A DNA stretch of 55,902 bases, the filler included, from Sphacelaria rigidula (taxonomy: Eukaryota): assembly GCA_964200075.2 (NCBI GenBank). It is 5 parts of 5 records of this genome, joined end to end, with 100 filler letters (N's around TTAATTAATTAA, not from the genome) between each part and the next. Parts side by side here need not be neighbours in the genome. Positions count along the whole stretch, not along the records: positions 33,604 to 44,703 come from CAXNAA020005388.1; 4 more parts are not named here. One strand, 5' to 3'. This document shows, in pieces, positions 3,481 through 44,703 of this stretch; within the stretch, counting starts at the first letter, position 1, and each line of letters starts with the position of its first letter. Below the pieces are notes generated by a model, which was given only the letters and a program-made list of their open reading frames with translations, searched no databases and was not told the DNA's origin. A program made the translations under genes and the position numbers.

Positions 3481-5097
3481 TTATCGATCGTTAACTACCA
3501 TAGACAGCATCTGGGCGATGGTGTGGTCAACTCTTTCAGTACCGCCATCACCATTAGGATGATAAGCGCTCGTGGCGATCTTTCGAATGCCCCGGAGCAT
3601 GTACAGTTCGTTCGAGGGATCGGAGCAAAATTGCTGACCATTGTCGGAGAGAAGCCGTTTCGGGCAACCATAGTGTTTGATATAGTCGTGAACTAAGATG
3701 TTAGCAGTGCCTGCCGCTGTGAAGTCTCCAGCGGTGACGGCGTACATGGCTGCGTGACGGCTGAAACGGTCGGTAAAGAGCAAGATGTAGGTGTTGCCAC
3801 GGTCAGTGGGCGGTAACGGACCGCAATAGTCGAAAGATGCGAGGTGACCAGGAGCGTTGGGAAGTGCCATCGGAATGACTGGCCAACGTATTGTCTGTCG
3901 TGAGGTTTTGCGAACTTGACACTTGAAGCATCGTCGAATCCAGAAGCGGGTGGACACCTCCATACCGACCCACCAGTAGAAACGTTCGAGTAACGGTAAT
4001 GTGCGCGTGACACCAAGGTGGCAAGACAGGTCAATGTGGCAGCATTTTATTACCCACGGTCGCATCAAAAAAGGGTCATATATCCGAGTGGGTTCATCGT
4101 CAAGTACGCGTGCTTGACGTCCAGTGGGCGCGGATGAAGTTACACGCCGCTGAGGCGTAGGGTGGCGGACAAGGAGTTCGATTCCGTCATCAGTTGTGAA
4201 GATAGTACCTTTACGTGCGAGTTCGTACACTTCAGCGGCGTTTGGTGGTGGCAATGTGCCAACCGGGGCCGATATACTGGCCGGGATAGGGGCAGGGCAG
4301 CCAGCACGGAGGTACCGCATGGTAGCGCGGCATAATGGCTCTGCTTGTTGTTCACGAGCCCATTCACGATGGGAGTAACTGGCGAGAAATTCACGCAGTT
4401 GGCCTTCCGCCGGAGAGTCGACCAGACATGGTGGCTCAGGAAGCGGTGGAACAGGTGACGGAGGGGAGGTGCCAACGTCGATGTGTACATCGGGAGCATC
4501 AGAAGGGGCGGGCACGGACTGGACCGCGGCGGGCGGCGATGTCGCAGTAGTGCGCGCCGGAGATCGCGCTCGGCGCTTGTTGTGATAACTGCGCGTGGCG
4601 GGGGTTGTCAAGGCTCGTGGTGCAGTGTTGCGGGGAGCCGGCGCTACGCTACTCGCAGGAGCAGTAGGTGTTGTCGGTGGCGGCGGGACGCGGGGAGGCT
4701 TAGCGCGGGCGGCAGACCGAGAGCGCGTACTGTCGGAAATGAGATGGATAACTGGAGGTGATGAAACTGCAATATTTGCGCGAGGACCGATAGTACGGAA
4801 ATCGGTGAAATTGGCGTCTGTGGCTTTTAGCCCATCCAAGACTACATCATACGGTAGGGGGCGAGGGCCGCCCATGTGCATACCCGTCTCTGGGCAATGA
4901 AGGTCAAGGGCGTAAATGGGCGTTGAGAAACGCCGGGTAGGGTACACGCCGGGTTCATCTGGTTCAGTTAGTCGGCAAGCGGGGCTGGAATCGACAGCCG
5001 TTGGAGGGAGGGGCAAGCGGGAGAGAAGGTCAGCATTCCCGTTGGTTTTGCCAGGGCGGTGTTTGACCGTATACTGATAAGCTGTCAGGAACTCCAA
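3481..5097 (-). pseudogene. RNase H end, Pro/Ala/Thr-rich linker and integrase core
   Basis: HRPGKTNGNADLLSR (RNase H end); H-x5-H...CFKC zinc motif; SFDYCGP, LLSDNGQQF, YHPNGDGGTER (DDE core). Confidence 0.92.
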
Positions 5098-5099
5098 CT

Positions 5100-5950
5100 A
5101 ACGTTGCACACGCGGATTATGTTCGCCAACTTTGGCGAGTTGTTTAAGTGCTCCGTGATCCGTGTAGATTGGAAAGGCACATGAAACAAATATTATCGAA
5201 CGCGCTTTATGGCCCAAGTGATGACTCCGTCTTCCAGCTCCAGTAGACTCCAGTCGGCCTCGTTCGGCAGGGTGGCGCGACTGATATAGAGGATGGGTCG
5301 AATAGAGTCATCGAGTTGGGGTTGATTCAGGACCGCGCCGAACCCGTCGGTGCTCGCGTCTGTGTGTAGTTGAAAGAGGCGAGAACCGTCTTGTACGGCA
5401 TCCCAATCTGGGAAACAAAGGACCGTTTTTTCGGTGAGCGTTTTCAGCAAATCGCGCACGATAGCTTCCGTATCTGTGGTGAACACAAACGCGGCGCCTT
5501 TTTTGAGCAAGTCCGTAATGGGGCGAACCCGTTTGCATAGGTTAGGCAAAAAATTGCGATAGTAGGACAGCCCACCTAATAATGAGCGGAGCTGAGTAAC
5601 GTTTGTGGGCATCGGTAATTTGGTCATTGCCCTTACTTTGTTGGTTTCGGGGTGTAGACCCGCCGGTGAAATTGAGTGTCCCAGAAAATCCAGTTCAGTC
5701 GCCCCAAGGCAAGCTCTGGATGGAGACAGCTTCAAATCATGTTTCCGCAGTCTAGAAAGAAACTCTCGTAAGGTGTGTACATGCGCAAGAGGGGAGGCAT
5801 CGAATGTGATAGCGTCGTCCAAGTACATGATGACGTGTTCGAGACTTCCTGTAACGCATTGCATCATGCGTTGAAAACAACGTGGTGCAGTGGCAGCGCC
5901 TTGTGGCATACGGAGTCATTCGTTGACCCCAGAAGATGTGCAGAACGCTG
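5100..5950 (-). pseudogene. Reverse transcriptase C-part and RNase H
   Basis: MPQG...FQRMM, YLDD, FLGH, LHTDASTDGFGAVL motifs. Confidence 0.95.
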
Positions 5951-7150: not shown

Positions 7151-7667
7151 ACATCGCTCAATTCTCTGGCTATAGGCGTTGCAGCACTTCAGCAGGAGGG
7201 TCGGACGTTGACGGTGCAGGGTCCACGGTGTGGATACGTGGAGACGAAGAGGTTACGTCGAAGTAAGGCTCATCGACGTAATTGACAGAACCATTTGTCG
7301 GAGGCGCCGAGTTGGGCGTCGAGGGTTCAGTGGTACACATTTCAAGTGGAATGTGCATGAGGGCAGCAGCAATGTCTAAGACATCTCCGGGTTCCAAATT
7401 AGCATGACCCGTGAGTGGAAAAAGCTGTTTTCCGGCGGAGACAACGTGTTCTTTGCCGGCAGGCGCACCAACCCAAGAAATAATTTCAGCGAGGTAGTGT
7501 CCCGTAAGGGCAGGCATGCTAGTTCGGCGGACGAAGGCAACTTTTAGCAGTTGAGGATCGTCGGAGAGGGTAACACCAGCAGTACCATCGTATCGGAGGT
7601 GGTAAGTAGCTCCGGTAGTTTGTTCATTTTTTGATAGACCAAGACGCCGTGAAGAGTACCGAAATGT

Positions 7668-11744: not shown

Positions 11745-12328
11745 TGCACAGAACAGAAACAACTCCAAAATCGGCTGAGCTCCCGTCGCTCTTTTGCTCA
11801 TCCAGGGCAAACATGCGTAGCTCATGTGGCTCTCGTAGCTCAACCAGGTAAACATCCATAGCTGATGTAGCTCTCACAGCTTACTCAGGGCAAATATGCG
11901 CGGATGAGCTACGTCCGGTAGCTCACCCAAGGCAATTATGCGTAGCTCACCTAGCTCTGATAGCTCATCGAGGGCAAACATGTGTAACTCGTGTAGCTCT
12001 CATAGCTCATCCAGGACAAACATGCTTGGCTCATGCAGCTCTCATAGCTCACCCACGGCGAATATGAGCTGATGAGCAACGGGTTGGTAGCTCACCTAGG
12101 GCAAACATGCGTAGCTCGTGCAGCTCTCACAGCTCACTAAAGGCGAATATGAGGTCATGAGCTACGGGTTGGTAGTTCACCTAGGGCAAACATGCGTAGC
12201 TCATGTTTCTCTCGAAGCTTACCCAGGGAAAACAGGCGTAGCTCATGTAGCTCTCGTAGCTCACTAGGGAGCTACGCTAAAAAAGAGCTAGCTCAAGCTA
12301 TAGGGAGCTGATCTGTCCGATCTGTGCA
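11745..12328. repeat. AGCT-rich 42-bp tandem array (~11 units), possibly a non-autonomous transposon
   Basis: GGCAAACATGCGTAGCTC-type unit at ~11806, 11847, 11889, 11931, 11973, 12015, 12057, 12100, 12142, 12185, 12227; flanked by TGCACAGA/TCTGTGCA. Confidence 0.85.
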
Positions 12329-15931: not shown

Positions 15932-18373
15932 ATGGCTCAAGCGGCGGCAGCGCCGCTGGTATTAGGTGAGCCATTACAGCCGCCAAAGTATGGTGAATTA
16001 TGGACCGAGGAGGCACCTCGCGTGTTTTTTGCCAGATACGTTGAATACGTACAAAGGTGAAGTCCAGCTAATGCAGAAGGAATTATACCACATGAGAGGG
16101 TGAGCATAGGTCAACTCATTCCTGTCTATGTTCACCGCTGCTTCAAGGATATGTACAAGGACGGTCGGGTTATGATCTCCGATGAATTGCTTGATACTGT
16201 GATGCAGCATGCTGGGTATACGACAACCGGTGGAAAGCATGACACTACGCGGGCTGCAGCAGACCTACGTAGGGTACTTACAATGAAGCAGAGCGGTGGA
16301 AAGTCCGTGAAGGGTCGTGCTATGATGGTTAGCTCAGACATGGAAAGGTTTTTTTCTGAACATTTGATGGTGCAAGCAATGTACCGTGCGGAGGACAGGA
16401 GTTGGTTGCCTGGCCCGGCCGAGTCGGTGTCCATAGCTTTGCTGGATGGCATTTTGCCCCCGGACTTCAAGGCGTATGTTAAAAACGTAGTAACGTATGT
16501 TGACGACTGGAAAAAGAACCCGACGGTGGTGTTCAAAAACAAATTTGAGGCGGTCGATCAGTGGAAATTCTTTGGAGCACATGCCCGGCGCGACTCTCCG
16601 ACAAGTGCAGGTGGTTCGCGCCGCAAACAGCAACATCAACAGAAACAGCAGCCGTCTTCGCGAGAGCCGTCCACTCACGCGTGTTATAACTGCGGCGACA
16701 CCGGACACATGATCAAGGACTGCCCCAAGCTTCGCACTCAAGACGCTGCACAGGGCAATGCACGAGATTTATCAGGGTCTCGGGGCGGTCGTCGCGGTGG
16801 ACGGGGCCGTGCCAATCGGGGATGCGGGCGCGGCGGCCGCGAGAGCAAGCAATCGGCGGCGGGTGGTGGTTCCTCCGCTGCTGTTTCTTCCACTACGTCA
16901 TCAGGTGGTGACTCTGGATTTTCTGGTTCGTCCGTAGCGGGGCGGATAGTGTACGTGGGAAACGGAAATACTTCGGTGGGGAGTGCTGGAGCAAATAGCT
17001 CGCAACCTATCGGACAGGCAGGATCCGTGCCTGGTGCATTTCCTACGGCTGCGACGGCGGTTACAGCGCCGTCTGCATGGTTGGCGACGTGGTCTGGTTG
17101 GACCGGCGATTCACAGTTATCGGTGCCGAGTGCTGGAGGGCAGCAATGGCGTCCGGTGACTATTGGGACAGAACAGGGTTCTTCGGCAGGCGTGGTACCT
17201 GCCGATCGCAAGGGTGAATGCTTACGCGCAGATTTATCCTTGCCTGGTTCTGTAGGTTCGTTTATGGCCAGCGTTATTCTGGATTGTGGGTCCGTTCTCA
17301 CGTCGATTGGTGTGGGGTTGCTTGAACAAATGTCTTCGCAGTTTGGCGGCGCTCAGCTTCAAATTCCGTTCGAAAACGAACCGCAAACGGCGCAGACCGC
17401 CACGGGTGCTCCCGTGACGGTTACACACAAAACAGTGCCAACTGCTGTTAGCGTTCGTACGCCGTGGGGGGTGGTGCAGTTGCAGCCCATTACTTTCGCT
17501 ATCATACCCGGTAGGGACAACGTGGTTCTATTTGTCATGGCAACAATCAAGGAGCTGGAAATTGATTTGTATCCGTTGGCGTTGGAGAAGTTACGTCCGC
17601 GTGCTGTGCCGGTGCAAACTGGCGTGGAAAATTCCAGCTTTCTTGCTGCAAGGCGTGTGATCGTATCAATACGGTCATTCCAAAGCGCCTGTGAGGAGGA
17701 GGCTCCTGCTGAGGAAGCAGTAGAGCACTTGGTCGATCGGGGGCCTGATATGTTCATGGGCCCAGCAGAGGAGAGAGGTGCACGGGAGCGTGCGGTTGAG
17801 GATAGTGTGCAGCAGGCCGAGCAGAAGGGCCTGAGCGCCGATGGCGCACATCGTCTGCGCGATATTCTGGCTCGTCGCGTAGATACATTTCGCCGTACGC
17901 TGCGTGGTGATCCGCCAGCGCGCGTTGAGCCCATGAGGGTGCAGCTCAAGCCCCAGGCAAAGGCGGTGAAGGCCAAGCCCAGACGGTACGATCCGGTGAA
18001 GACCGGGTGGCTTGCCTCATGCATCGCAGCTTTGGTGGCGTTTGGTTTAGTGGTGAGGAACATCCAGGCTGTGTGGGCGAGTCGGGCGATGGCGGTGCCG
18101 AAAAGGGATACATTCCGTTTGGTCAGCGACTATCAGGCGGTGAACACGCGAGTGGAACAGTCTCCGGGGGTGATGCCAAGCCAAGAAGACATGCGGGAGT
18201 TGCTGGGAGCCCAATGCTTCGGCAAGTTGGGCCTGCTACAGGAGTATTGGCAGATGACTCTGGCGCCGGAGGCTCAAGAAATCCGACCGTCACGCCGGAA
18301 GGTTTGTTCACGCCTACTTGTGCCCCGCAGGGGTGTTGAACGCCACGCCGTATTTTCAAGGTGTGCTGACTGA
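15932..18373 (+). pseudogene. Gag - protease - RT N-part
   Basis: CYNCGDTGHMIKDC zinc knuckle; ILDCGS protease; FRLVSDYQAVN RT; candidate ATG at 15932 followed by disruptions. Confidence 0.9.
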
Positions 18374-40480: not shown

Positions 40481-41494
40481 TCACGAGAAAAGGATGGCCT
40501 CAATCAATAATAGCTACATTTCAATATTCGCTGCTCTGTTTACCGAAACCGGAGTACTGTGTACGATATCCGCAAATTGAGAAAACAGAGTCATGAGGCG
40601 ATCATTGGCATGCACCAAGTCGAAGCGACCGTCTTTTGCTGCAAGAAGGTTCCACGAGATCCCTGCCGTCACACCTCAGTGTTGGTGTTGTTGGTAAGGG
40701 TAACCGTCTCGGTCCCGCCTCCCGAGGTATATCCGAGATCCACGGTCGACCGATCAAGGTAAACGTCGTTCACAGAAGGATCTGAGAACACAAGGGTGCG
40801 TCAGATTTGGGGTGAGGTTGAAAGAGTTGGTTTTTGGGGTCGCGGGCATATTTGATGTGGCGGCAGGGGTAGCAGTAGTGCGAACATGCAACAATAAAGC
40901 GAGAAACCGAGCACGAGAAACTGTATCAGTTACATATCGGCAAATGATGGGCGAAGCGAAAGGTTCCGTTCTTCGGGGATGTATATCTCAGGATTTGGGC
41001 CACATCCGACGCGAAAGCCGAAAAATAAAGCAGGCCCTACCAACGACGTCAGTATAGAGCGTGGCCGGGAGAAATGCACGCGAAAAAACACGGGGCCTAG
41101 GGGTAATGATGTTTCTGCTTCAATATTTCGAAGTATGCGGCGTTTGCATCACCACATGCTGAGTCTTGGACAAGATTTTGCCGGTATTTGTTGATGGATG
41201 ATTAAGGGGTGCAGAGTCTAGCTTATCAACAACATTGTTGCTGAAACTATGTCAACAGAGAGTGTGATACTCCGTCACCTGCTCTACCCACGGTCTATAG
41301 TGTGACATACGGTTAGTACCACAAATGTATCAAGTGCTCTCGGCGAGAAACTGCCTCATCTTACGGCAAAAGCAATTGTCGTGTTTGCATTATGCAGTAT
41401 TTCAAAATGGTTTCAGTCAAGGACGTTCACCTAAGGGATATGCGAATTTCCCTTGTGATTGTGTGCCTGTCACTTGAACGTTCTCTGAATACAT

Positions 41495-41866
41495 CACATC
41501 CTGGACGATACAATATGTTTCCAATATATATTAGTCGATCATATTGGAATTTTGCGATATATTGCCGGCGTAATATATATTGGCACCCTTGGACTGCACA
41601 CGTATTGCGCGCCCAATATATATATTGATGTGATGGGACTGCATACATATTTCCCGCCCAATATATTTATATATATATTGGTACTGTGGGGTTGAACACA
41701 TATTGTTCCATCAATATATATCGGGACAGCGTGGGCGACAGCATATTGCACGACCAATATATATTAGAGTCGCACTGATGAGAACATATTAACCGGTCAA
41801 TATATATATATATATATATTGGGTCTGCGTGTGTGCCAAGGTATTGGCCGGTCAATATATATTGGA
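41495..41866. repeat. Truncated element: TIR-like start plus CAATATATATTG array
   Basis: Starts CACATCCTGGACGATACAATATGT; palindrome units at 41522, 41571, 41614, 41659, 41712, 41755, 41798, 41853. Confidence 0.85.
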
Positions 41867-42214
41867 TATCATAAGTATGGTGTACGCTCTAAGAAGGATG
41901 CAGACGCGATGGATGCCGGAGCCCGTGCAGATTGGGAAAAGCTTCAAAGGGAGCCGCAAACGTTCGCGTGCATTACTACGGAGAGTAGTCGAATGCGTTT
42001 GACACACACATATGTAAATATATACTAGTGAAAAAATATGGTGACAGAAGAGGCGACCTGGTATATCTGCCTCCTAATATCTAAGTGGCCACCGGTGCGG
42101 GGCCGCCCATCGCCTTCCCAGCATCTAATTAACTTGGCTAAACATCACGATGACGGAAAACGCGGGTCGATATGCGCCTGTTGGTACCCTTGTGGTCACC
42201 GGGGCTGTGTTGCT

Positions 42215-43174
42215 TACACCCTGGACAACACAATATGTTCCAATATGATACCAATACCTTGTATTGGAGCCAGCTCAAACATTGTCCTTTCAATATATAT
42301 TGTGTTGAAACGTCCTCGGAGACATTGAAGCAACAACGTATATTGCTCGTGTCAGGATCATGAAGTAATATATGACAATATATATTGGACATACCTTTGC
42401 TCCGGGAATGAAACATTCAATATATATTGTGCATGCCGGCCGTGTATGTATTGAAGTGTCGATATATATTGAGTCGAAGCGATGCGTAGCATATTGTTAC
42501 CATAATATATATTGAACGCAAACCATGCAAATGTATTGTTTTCCCAATATATATTGCGCACGCTCATCGCATAGCTTTTGTGCAGCCAATATATATTGAG
42601 CACGCTCGCGGAGGAAGATATTGAGCGTTTTCGGCATGTGGTGATACACATTTCAATGGCGCCCGCGAACATAGAGTTGCCCGCCATACTTATTTCAATA
42701 CACTTTGCAATCTACATGCTGAAAATCAATATATATATATATGTATATATTGCTACACCAATATGTATTGTGACCGTCCGTTCCCTCGTGTATTGTCGGC
42801 CAAATATTTATTGGACGCAATGGCGCACGACATATTGGGGCGGCAATATATATTGGCGCTTCTGGTGTTGAGTATATTGAATCATCAGTACATATTGCCT
42901 TCGTGTGGCAGCCAATATAATACTCGACATATATATGTTGGTGCCATCTCGCACCAACATATTACTCGGCCAATTTATATTGAGGTGGCGCGTGTCGTGA
43001 TATATTGTCCGGTCGATATATATTGCATGTCGCGAGCCTTGACATATTGCTTGCCCAATATATATTGACCCTCTCTCGTGCCATCATATTGCTCGCCCAA
43101 TATATATTGATCACCCGACGCGTCGACATATTGAGCGGGCAATATATATTACATATTGTATTGTCCAGGGTGTG
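42215..43174. mobile_element. TIR element (~960 bp) built from two 42-bp-period palindrome arrays
   Basis: TIRs TACACCCTGGACAACACAATATGT / ACATATTGTATTGTCCAGGGTGTG; 8 + 10 units of CAATATATATTG or variants. Confidence 0.85.
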
Positions 43175-44703
43175 GAATATTTCAGGTCATACTGCGTGAT
43201 GTGAGGCATCTACGCAGCGTTCCGTTACTTTTGGTCACCCTAGCGTTCCATGAAGACCTGAGACCGATTCTCATCACCTGAGGAATCAACAAAGAACTCG
43301 TGTGCCACAGCCGTTTGCAGACGCGTGGCTTCTCCACTCCTCGTCAACGGCTTCGAGAGGCTGCACTTCTGGAGCGCCACCGTGCCCTGAGGTCCAACCT
43401 TCGCGAAGAGGTCGCTCATCCCCTCTTGCTTCAGTAGACTTTCCAGTTCCTCAGACGAGCATCGTCCAAGGCCCACGTTTGCTCTGCAACGGCAGGTAAA
43501 CGACATTTCTCGGATTATTGTCTGCTCTCTGTAGACGCCGACACCTCATGCGAGTGTAGTGTTACATAACTTGTGCTCAGAACACTCCGCAAGTGCATCC
43601 TTTACGCTCTCTTATGATGCGCCTACTCACGTTCGCCCCCAACTTTACACCCGAGAACGTAGAACAACATGCATCCATACTCGTGAACGACTGAATTCGC
43701 ACGTATACGCAGAATCTCTTGCCAAAACTACGCGCGCTTTACGTCTCAAGGTCAGATTTCTCGAACCAACATGCATCACACCAGATTTGTGGGCTACACG
43801 AAAAAGATGTTTGAACTTTGCCGAGACGCAGGCTAGTTGTCATCCACCCTTCGGACGTATATTACACACGCACGAGGCCTGGCATCCATACACTCCTGCA
43901 AAATACAGTGCGCTTGCCTGAAATGTACTTGTTCTGTGGCCATCACCTGTTTTAATGGATCCAATTGCTACGGATTGTACACTATAATAGTCACTGAACT
44001 GCTGACCACCGGGCTTATCGTCCAAGCCATGCTTCGCTGTATGGCGAACCGACAGTGACACTCATAACCTGCGGTCTACGATACACTGGTATACGGAATA
44101 TTCAACATCACCGTGCTAGAACAACATGTACCTGTTCCTGAACGCTTGGACGTGAGCGTGTCGTAACGGCGCTGGGCGTTGCTCCTCCACTTCCCCCTTC
44201 GCCACAAGGTATCCCGTGCCCATAGCATCCAAAACCAACGGCTGCTGGTTCTCCAGAAGACAGAAAATTCTCCTGGGTTGCAACGATGAGAAAGTACCCT
44301 GGAGTTGACAAGAGTGCACGCCTGAGTTTGGCGACGTGAGTATGTGCTCTCGTTGCTTTGTGCGCACCAGAGTGTACTCTATGGGCGTATTTTGTTACGT
44401 ACAAAGGTGCCCGCAATCTACGAGGTCGGTCGCGCTGCTCCCGTACACGTCTTGCATGCACGATGAGAAGAATCTGCAAAATATTAATTCTTAATATGAA
44501 ACAGGCATTCAGATGCAAACGTTTACATAGTAAGAATACCTGAAAATTAGGCCAAGTTTCTCTCCTTCTTACTTTTGTTTTATGGATCCATCTCGCATAG
44601 TCGGGCTGGTTGTGGGAGGAGGGGGGGGGGGGGGGGGGGGGGGGGTTTGATATAAAAAATTTGATTCTGCTCGTGGGGGGGGGGGGGGGGAGGGGCGGAA
44701 GGG

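Follow-up and report, generated by a model that had tools for sequence, protein, structure and literature searches.

A CRISPR-like palindrome array in the brown alga Sphacelaria rigidula lies within a transposon that is probably a non-autonomous hAT with phased subterminal sites

The array of palindromes and spacers reported from Sphacelaria rigidula (assembly GCA_964200075.2) sits inside a larger, 1,680-bp non-autonomous DNA transposon at positions 41495-43174 of the window, by which we mean the whole 55,902-nt stretch of DNA that was analysed. The element has 24-bp terminal inverted repeats (TIRs), three arrays, an 8-bp target site duplication (TSD), a dispersed colinear family and a transposase-bearing relative with the same terminus, pentamer and period. 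Judging from sequence, we consider it probable that this is a non-autonomous brown-algal hAT element with phased BED-finger sites, mobilised by a divergent hAT transposase supplied in trans, for example that of the relative, C9129. The first-pass annotation had proposed a phased protein-binding array, probably of transposase sites, in a TIR element. That proposal gains support from the 8-bp TSD, from a relative that bears a transposase and matches the element in terminus and pentamer, and from purifying selection on the repeat cores and on unit length.

The boundaries differ from those first drawn (Table 1). The repeat at 42215, first taken for the left TIR, is a TIR copy inside the element, and the true start at 41495 brings in a third array that had been missed. 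Because the left flanks of matched loci are all alike, the element must extend upstream of 42215; of 30 loci examined, 26 yielded both motifs, and in each of these the sequence upstream of the internal TIR is family sequence. This internal copy is not an end in any copy read. Contigs of the public run X1 have loose ends at 41494/41495 and at 43174, although this run, which includes the flanks and could come from the sample behind the assembly itself, is not independent. The longest frame of the element (147 aa) has no Pfam match. The element is non-coding, keeps its TIRs, and occurs in many dispersed copies with differing TSDs, as do non-autonomous TIR elements or MITEs.

Table 1. Parts of the transposon and its flanks, in window positions.
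Feature	Position	Strand	Remarks
Left TSD	41487..41494	+	8 bp, GAATACAT; 6/8 match to right TSD
True left TIR	41495..41518	+	24 bp; 2 mismatches to family consensus
Array A	41522..41864	+	8 palindromes; 43-bp units in consensus
Internal segment, non-repetitive, with (TA)n tract	41865..42214	.	no coding match
Internal TIR copy	42215..42238	+	tip TATAC; CACAC in consensus
Array B	42291..42598	+	8 palindromes; mean period 42.3 bp
Array C	42759..43151	+	10 palindromes; mean period 42.3 bp; orientation as A and B
Right TIR	43151..43174	-	24 bp, identical to consensus
Right TSD	43175..43182	+	8 bp, GAATATTT

Some details of this structure are worth recording. In the window copy several palindrome centres of array A are enlarged to (TA)n, and the centres at 41614, 41659, 41798-41821 and 42727-42752 grow into (TA)n microsatellites after insertion. 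The internal TIR with its TATAC tip lies at +704 here and at +735 in a sister element, L174, that is otherwise non-alignable; it was not found in the first 2.1 kb of the C9129 left end. The left end is tandemly doubled in copies L032, L044, L046 and L057, with two left TIRs about 500 bp apart in the first three, and doubled left ends are a possible route to internal TIRs.

Searching the alga's own genome with the reported stretch gave 645 first-look candidates, and the 40 that were scored have 82-90% identity, mostly across the full query. Of 55 loci, we retained 30 as distinct copies that measure 1,300-1,750 bp and have an outer TIR at each end, leaving out duplicates, truncated copies and interrupted copies; the 30 are the best matches to the window copy, not a random sample. 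They diverge from a 1,649-bp consensus by 5-9% (mean identity 0.936), so the burst is old. The flanks of the 30 copies have an identity of 0.88 when 8 bp are compared, and no other length between 2 and 12 bp gives more than 0.38; TSDs agree at six to eight of eight positions in 29 copies, and their sequences are distinct. An 8-bp TSD and a 24-bp TIR fit the hAT superfamily, described as having 8-bp TSDs and short, 10-25-bp TIRs (PMC3942097). The first 12 bases of the TIR fit CAY-N5-GGAC, as at hAT ends in this genome.

Insertions favour a loose palindrome, RAATATTY, with a central TA. Across 60 target flanks, A is found at position 2 in 42 and T at position 7 in 45; T4 occurs in 32 and A5 in 30, the AA..TT flanks being the stronger. 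This differs from the nTnnnnAn preference listed for the Ac family, which these 60 flanks do not show; nnnTAnnn is listed for the Buster family (bioRxiv 10.1101/2022.09.16.508221). The 24-bp TIR has 127 exact matches in the genome and a looser pattern a further 935. Nearly all exact matches inspected (29/30) run on into this family, and the remaining one is the same element with an insertion. Thirteen extended loci with seemingly unmatched TIRs, considered as partners, contained insertions or truncations and yielded none. Beyond this assembly, contig pieces from runs labelled organisms B and C are colinear with the element over 25 of 30 bins, and a 22-bp TIR query had no exact match in JGI metagenomes.

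Within the arrays, the unit layout first described holds: a palindrome, 17-18 nt, a TATTG half-site and 6 nt, in the same orientation in both arms. All but one of the 18 palindrome positions then listed carry CAATATATATTG with at most two mismatches; 42928 is too degenerate, and the palindrome listed at 42801 begins at 42802. With at most one mismatch this word occurs 19 times in the 55.9-kb window, always within 41522-43151, whereas shuffles predict 0.07. Units of the consensus are 42 bp (11) or 43 bp (11) long, and their mean of 42.5 bp corresponds to four helical turns (10.6 bp each). What is conserved is the pentamer CAATA, present in the palindrome as CAATA-TA-TATTG, in the half-site as TATTG and twice more in the TIR. 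The 1,649-bp consensus holds 77 exact CAATA/TATTG words, two of them within each TIR, in line with the sets of subterminal repeats near the TIRs of hAT ends (PMC10368747). Across the array gaps, palindromes stand 445 and 158 bp apart, or 42.0 and 14.9 turns of 10.6 bp; on these two values only, the three arrays may be in phase with one another.

Identity between units is 0.95 for the palindrome, 0.70 for the half-site, and 0.33 and 0.30 for the two spacers, slightly above the 28.6% and 25.5% of shuffled spacers; GC content is 16-27% in cores and 58-60% in spacers. The spacers had been called unique. They are dissimilar, but a mean pairwise identity of 0.33, against 0.286 +/- 0.006 after shuffling, marks them as related, and their identity reaches 0.72 within the left array. 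We interpret this slight excess, higher within the left array, to indicate that tandem duplication built the arrays and that the spacers then drifted to near saturation. Hairpins are not in excess in the spacers: the value observed is matched by 29 of 300 shuffles.

Which transposase might move such an element? We probed the downstream stretch of 12 loci among 77 further transposase matches. Seven of the 12 belong to one family ending in CACACCCTG(G/T)ACAAT; they are 80-89% alike, their flanks all differ, and in six the TIR lies 1,323-1,344 bp from the same transposase point. One member, G000:C9129 (1078-7856), is a 6,779-bp (6.8-kb) element bounded by two TIRs and a TSD that matches at 7/8 positions, and each of its ends holds arrays of 42.5-bp period. 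It has the same 16-bp terminus as the window element (16/16 bases), the same pentamer and the same period, and alignment between the two is limited to 16-19 terminal bases. C9129 is a candidate for the autonomous partner that had been envisaged. The arrays of the putatively autonomous elements hold degenerate CRATR sites, mostly without the 12-bp palindrome.

Protein evidence for C9129 comes from its C-terminal exon and an N-terminal motif, on either side of the middle 2.2 kb (3501-5699). The hAT C-terminal dimerisation region is recognised in that exon by a profile of 18 PF05699-bearing homologues (E 7e-20) and by a pairwise match to the PF05699 region of L216 (BLASTP E 1e-15, 30% over 116 aa); a direct Pfam search gave no PF05699 match, and in the PDB, Hermes chains are the top three rows, weakly (E 0.08-0.1). 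For a hAT exon of this genome, 18 homologues were obtained; the seven that are named all come from genera that we take to be brown algae, one of the seven being identical to the query, in keeping with a brown-algal host. The N-terminal C-x5-C...H-x3-H motif scores 0.95 to a BED cluster in the Atlas. Across the clade, W, C, C, RHL and H of the finger are invariant in 5 exons, with Atlas BED clusters at 0.93-0.95; both calls are weak, given low recognition values (under 2300). As zf-BED, the clade finger was matched by Pfam in none of 4 exons and was negative in a PDB profile search; a fold search on a pLDDT 55 model gave no match, a search with the BED exon matched only itself, and a homologue search among longer proteins found none.

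On these sequence grounds, the divergent hAT transposase of C9129 is the likely mobiliser of the window element. Since only 16-19 terminal bases are common to the two and L174 is closer, the exact mobiliser may be another subfamily. L174 (1,758 bp, perfect TSD, 43-bp period) is a closer derivative of C9129 than the window element, which shares terminus, pentamer and period only; L174 can be aligned to the window element only at TIR words and the (TA)n tract. The 935 looser TIR matches come from sister families, 103-397 bp long, in which the 16-bp terminus recurs together with CAATA words and 8-bp TSDs. Among sister MITEs, those of 170 bp (L153, L155, L163, L166) and 138 bp (L151, L152) are abundant and fold back over almost their whole length; they share this terminus, but their CAATA words are spaced by 9 bp and the 42-bp period is absent.

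Two candidate ends were set aside. At L104, a supposed hAT end with this TIR, a 170-bp sister MITE is present by chance. At L117/L145, CACACCCTGGACAAC occurs 1.1 kb past the transposase, and homology places the true end, CACACGTCGGAC, nearer the gene. The hAT copies L145:91-2226 and L210:1-2140 are alike over 2.1 kb beyond their end, a stretch that holds the CACACCCTGGACAAC terminus with the same flank; from this sequence they appear to be nested in, or duplicated with, another element.

The 42-43-bp period extends to related ends that carry other words. Other hAT ends in this genome start with CAY-N5-GGAC followed by a family-specific word: AGCTC at L217, L219 and L223, ACGAG at L227 and L228, the last with both TIRs and a perfect TSD. 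Using a comb score at 42.5 bp, with the 95th percentile of 165 control windows (1.74) as threshold, we found the period kept with other pentamers in 8 of 9 hAT end types tested. Seven of eight end types exceed the threshold (2.1-6.1; L213 scores 1.5), and the ninth, the C9129 family, scores 3.05, with best-window scores of 3.7-7.1; five of the 165 control windows reach 2.2, one of them 4.6. In this comparison L145, L225 and L226 are not independent, as they align with each other, the L215 TIR was not located, L122 is marginal and L213 is without clear period. The period is not hAT-wide: it appears at 2 of the top 30 PF05699 loci; among the 30, one had no downstream sequence and three had under 900 bp. 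GGTAC-rich hAT ends L231, L233 and L236 peak near 41 bp, and L232 and L235 show no period. The two arms are in direct orientation in 5 of 5 elements checked, so the common orientation is a clade trait. Our search, with Repbase reports and most subscription papers outside its scope, found no published fixed 42-43-bp or helical-turn period in hAT ends.

Other parts of the window hold comparable features. An array at 11796-12264 has AGCTC words, a 42/85-bp period and 75-86% likeness to the ends of L217, L219 and L223, and by its sequence would be a second clade member in the window. A duplicated GGTA-rich array at 288-980 has a 41/82-bp period, a sister period, judging by length and GGTAC richness, to that of the L231, L233 and L236 ends; the terminus of L231 is CACAGGTCGGAC. 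At 7232 (-), a lone CACACCGTGGAC word fits the clade terminus and may be chance. Tandem arrays also occur near hAT loci, at L215:2822-3332 (105 bp), L216:424-744 (63 bp) and L222:1038-1319 (97 bp), the first two periods being near 10 and 6 turns. Retrotransposon-type frames with integrase (rve, Integrase_H2C2) and zinc knuckle lie at 3481-5097 (-) and 16061-18373 (+).

These observations suggest a mechanism. CAATA would be the site of the transposase's N-terminal BED-like zinc finger, and each 42.5-bp unit would offer three such sites, TATTG-N6-CAATA-TA-TATTG, that is, the palindrome plus one extra. Four turns per unit would put successive modules on one face of the DNA, where one or several transposase oligomers could load and bring the TIR, with its clade-wide CAY-N5-GGAC, to the catalytic dimer. 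The spacers would act as rulers that set distance only, which would explain why their sequence drifts until saturated whereas cores and length are preserved. Tandem duplication of one unit may have given rise to the arrays, with whole units still being lost by slippage. It is a matter of speculation that dense, perfect sites let the element out-compete an autonomous partner whose sites are sparser and degenerate.

With rather less than even confidence, we suggest that the four-turn, 42.5-bp ruler in the ends of this clade is the footprint of a transposase oligomer: one unit, one oligomer, three fingers. Such a ruler would outlive complete turnover of the pentamer (CAATA, AGCTC, ACGAG, CATGA), and its polarity along the element would mean that ends pair through stacked oligomers and not by one ring alone. 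If this is true, the clade offers a natural series in which each finger is matched to its own pentamer while the scaffold stays constant.

Alternatively, in the same hAT element the phased cores may be recognised by a chromatin or DNA-bending protein of the host, or work through DNA shape, aiding the pairing of ends, with transposase contacts confined to the TIR and the first sites. Arguing for this case, a bending factor from the host has been put forward for the inner ends of Hermes (PMC10368747), AT-rich cores alternate with GC-rich spacers, and the clade conserves the period, not the motif. Counter to this, the pentamer (CAATA, AGCTC, ACGAG) varies by family together with the bases right behind the TIR, as expected of co-evolution with a transposase, and several motifs are not AT-rich. 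Because the pentamer changes with the family, we favour the transposase over one host protein and consider the host-protein or shape explanation unlikely.

The variation among the 30 copies bears on whether the arrays are instead a decayed minisatellite, carried passively, in which period and cores persist by inheritance and slippage. Private substitutions per site are 0.038 in cores, 0.036 in spacers and 0.036 in unique sequence; in other words, after insertion cores mutate at the spacer rate, a point in favour of passive carriage. Variants present in five or more copies, which we term shared, passed through transposing ancestors, and these avoid the cores: they were seen in 8 of the 359 columns of the cores and in 48 of the 561 of the spacers (Fisher P=5e-5, an approximate value, since shared variants stem from few branches), in none of the 48 TIR columns and in 64 of the 607 columns outside the arrays. 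In neutral simulations with the private indel rate, all 22 units stay at 42/43 bp with P=0.004 at 0.3 substitutions per site and P=5e-5 at 0.5, and the sole shared length change is from 42 to 43. Within the replicating lineage, both the CAATA cores and unit length are thus under purifying selection.

A passive minisatellite would also account for the trace of common descent left in the spacers and for deletions of at least 15 nt, 10 of 15 of which take out whole units from copies that are otherwise ordinary, and the length simulation rests on the assumption that units diverged independently. Against it stand palindromes 95% alike between units when spacers are 33% alike, the shared variants and the single shared length change just described, and the recurrence of an identical period in ends that cannot be aligned. 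The even divergence along the monomer of a plain satellite is not seen. We regard the minisatellite explanation as largely refuted by the shared-variant and length tests, and hence as quite improbable.

Still less probable is membership of another superfamily with 8-bp TSDs, such as KDZ/Zisupton, in which case the window element would resemble the hAT family in its terminus by chance. Ectocarpus KDZ families do have 8-bp TSDs and complex termini with tandem repeats (PMC12477816), and our transposase search was without KDZ, P and Merlin. The KDZ termini shown in that source begin CAGTA, GGGTG, GGGGG, GGGTC or GGGGC, whereas hAT-2_Ec32 has CACAC-GTGTG, and here 16/16 terminal bases, pentamer and period match ends that bear a hAT transposase.

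The order of the spacers, a check named in the first-pass annotation, disposes of its suggestion that the array acquires spacers. Across the 30 copies, 635 of 660 spacer positions were recovered; order is kept in 27 copies, and the other three have unit deletions where a neighbour was matched. Among nine insertions of at least 15 nt, eight are (TA)n expansions of the palindrome and one duplicates an existing spacer. The fixed spacer set, with 0 novel spacers in 30 copies, refutes acquisition in this family. The label of a CRISPR-looking array is not borne out either: Rfam gave 0 matches at E up to 1, Pfam gave 0 families in the three flanking or overlapping frames scanned, and the palindrome pair had no exact match in IMG/VR viral contigs. 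A CRISPR-like memory array, favoured only by its look of constant repeats and dissimilar, equal-length spacers, can be dismissed with near certainty, given the fixed order, the nature of the long insertions, the colinear contigs labelled organisms B and C, and the Rfam and Pfam results.

The preferred reading, a hAT element with phased BED-finger sites, is best compared with Hermes, an Ac-family hAT. At its left end, the palindromic pair STR1-STR2 and a further site, STR3, are occupied by three BED domains that belong to three dimers of an octamer ring; phasing there is crucial, and shifting by one base impairs cleavage (PMC10368747). Mutation of inner BED sites in Hermes had no great effect on transposition (PMC10368747), which counts against a phased-site mechanism here. 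The two are alike in having pentamer-sized sites right behind the TIR, a palindromic pair with a third site, phasing and an 8-bp TSD; as we read that account, the left and right STRs of Hermes also run the same way along the element. Unlike Hermes, with one module and scattered sites in the account given there, the window element has 25 modules with a strict 42-43-bp period in three arrays, and its targets are RAATATTY-like with a central TA, not nTnnnnAn. The Hermes authors describe multimerisation data for other hAT transposases as lacking and the role of the inner ~200 bp as unexplained (PMC10368747). BuT2 MITEs of Drosophila (PMC3942097) resemble the element in being non-coding and moved in trans, with conserved TIRs and 8-bp TSDs that differ between copies; they measure 532-927 bp compared to 1.65 kb here, where there is also an internal TIR copy. 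The window element, unlike hAT MITEs of the BuT2 type, is not a simple internal deletion of the partner found.

The closest known family, compared by description only, is Ectocarpus hAT-2. Listed as hAT-2_Ec32 (Repbase hAT-2_ESi), it is autonomous, measures 8,945 bp and has 21-bp TIRs and CACAC-GTGTG termini (PMC12477816). Both are brown-algal hATs with these termini, with TIRs of 21 and 24 bp and, for hAT-2_Ec32, a TSD assumed to be 8 bp. It differs in being autonomous, and its entry, as far as given in that source, names no subterminal array, period or non-autonomous family. The four hAT families of Ectocarpus make up 0.05% of the genome in 128 copies (PMC12477816), compared to 127 exact plus 935 looser TIR matches here.

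The kind of element is thus already known, as a hAT with CACAC-GTGTG termini; its selected, helically phased subterminal sites set this one apart. In itself it is an ordinary non-autonomous hAT, and what it adds is geometry. A clade that keeps a four-turn period under selection while swapping pentamers predicts binding that follows each family's pentamer, a drop in activity on a half-turn insertion and rescue by a full turn. CRISPR arrays combine a constant palindromic repeat with dissimilar spacers of equal length. The array described here, in contrast, lies in a eukaryotic transposon, has fixed, inter-related spacers with a second conserved site in each, and is without an Rfam match. Selected cores with drifting spacers can mimic a CRISPR array, a caution for sequence scans.
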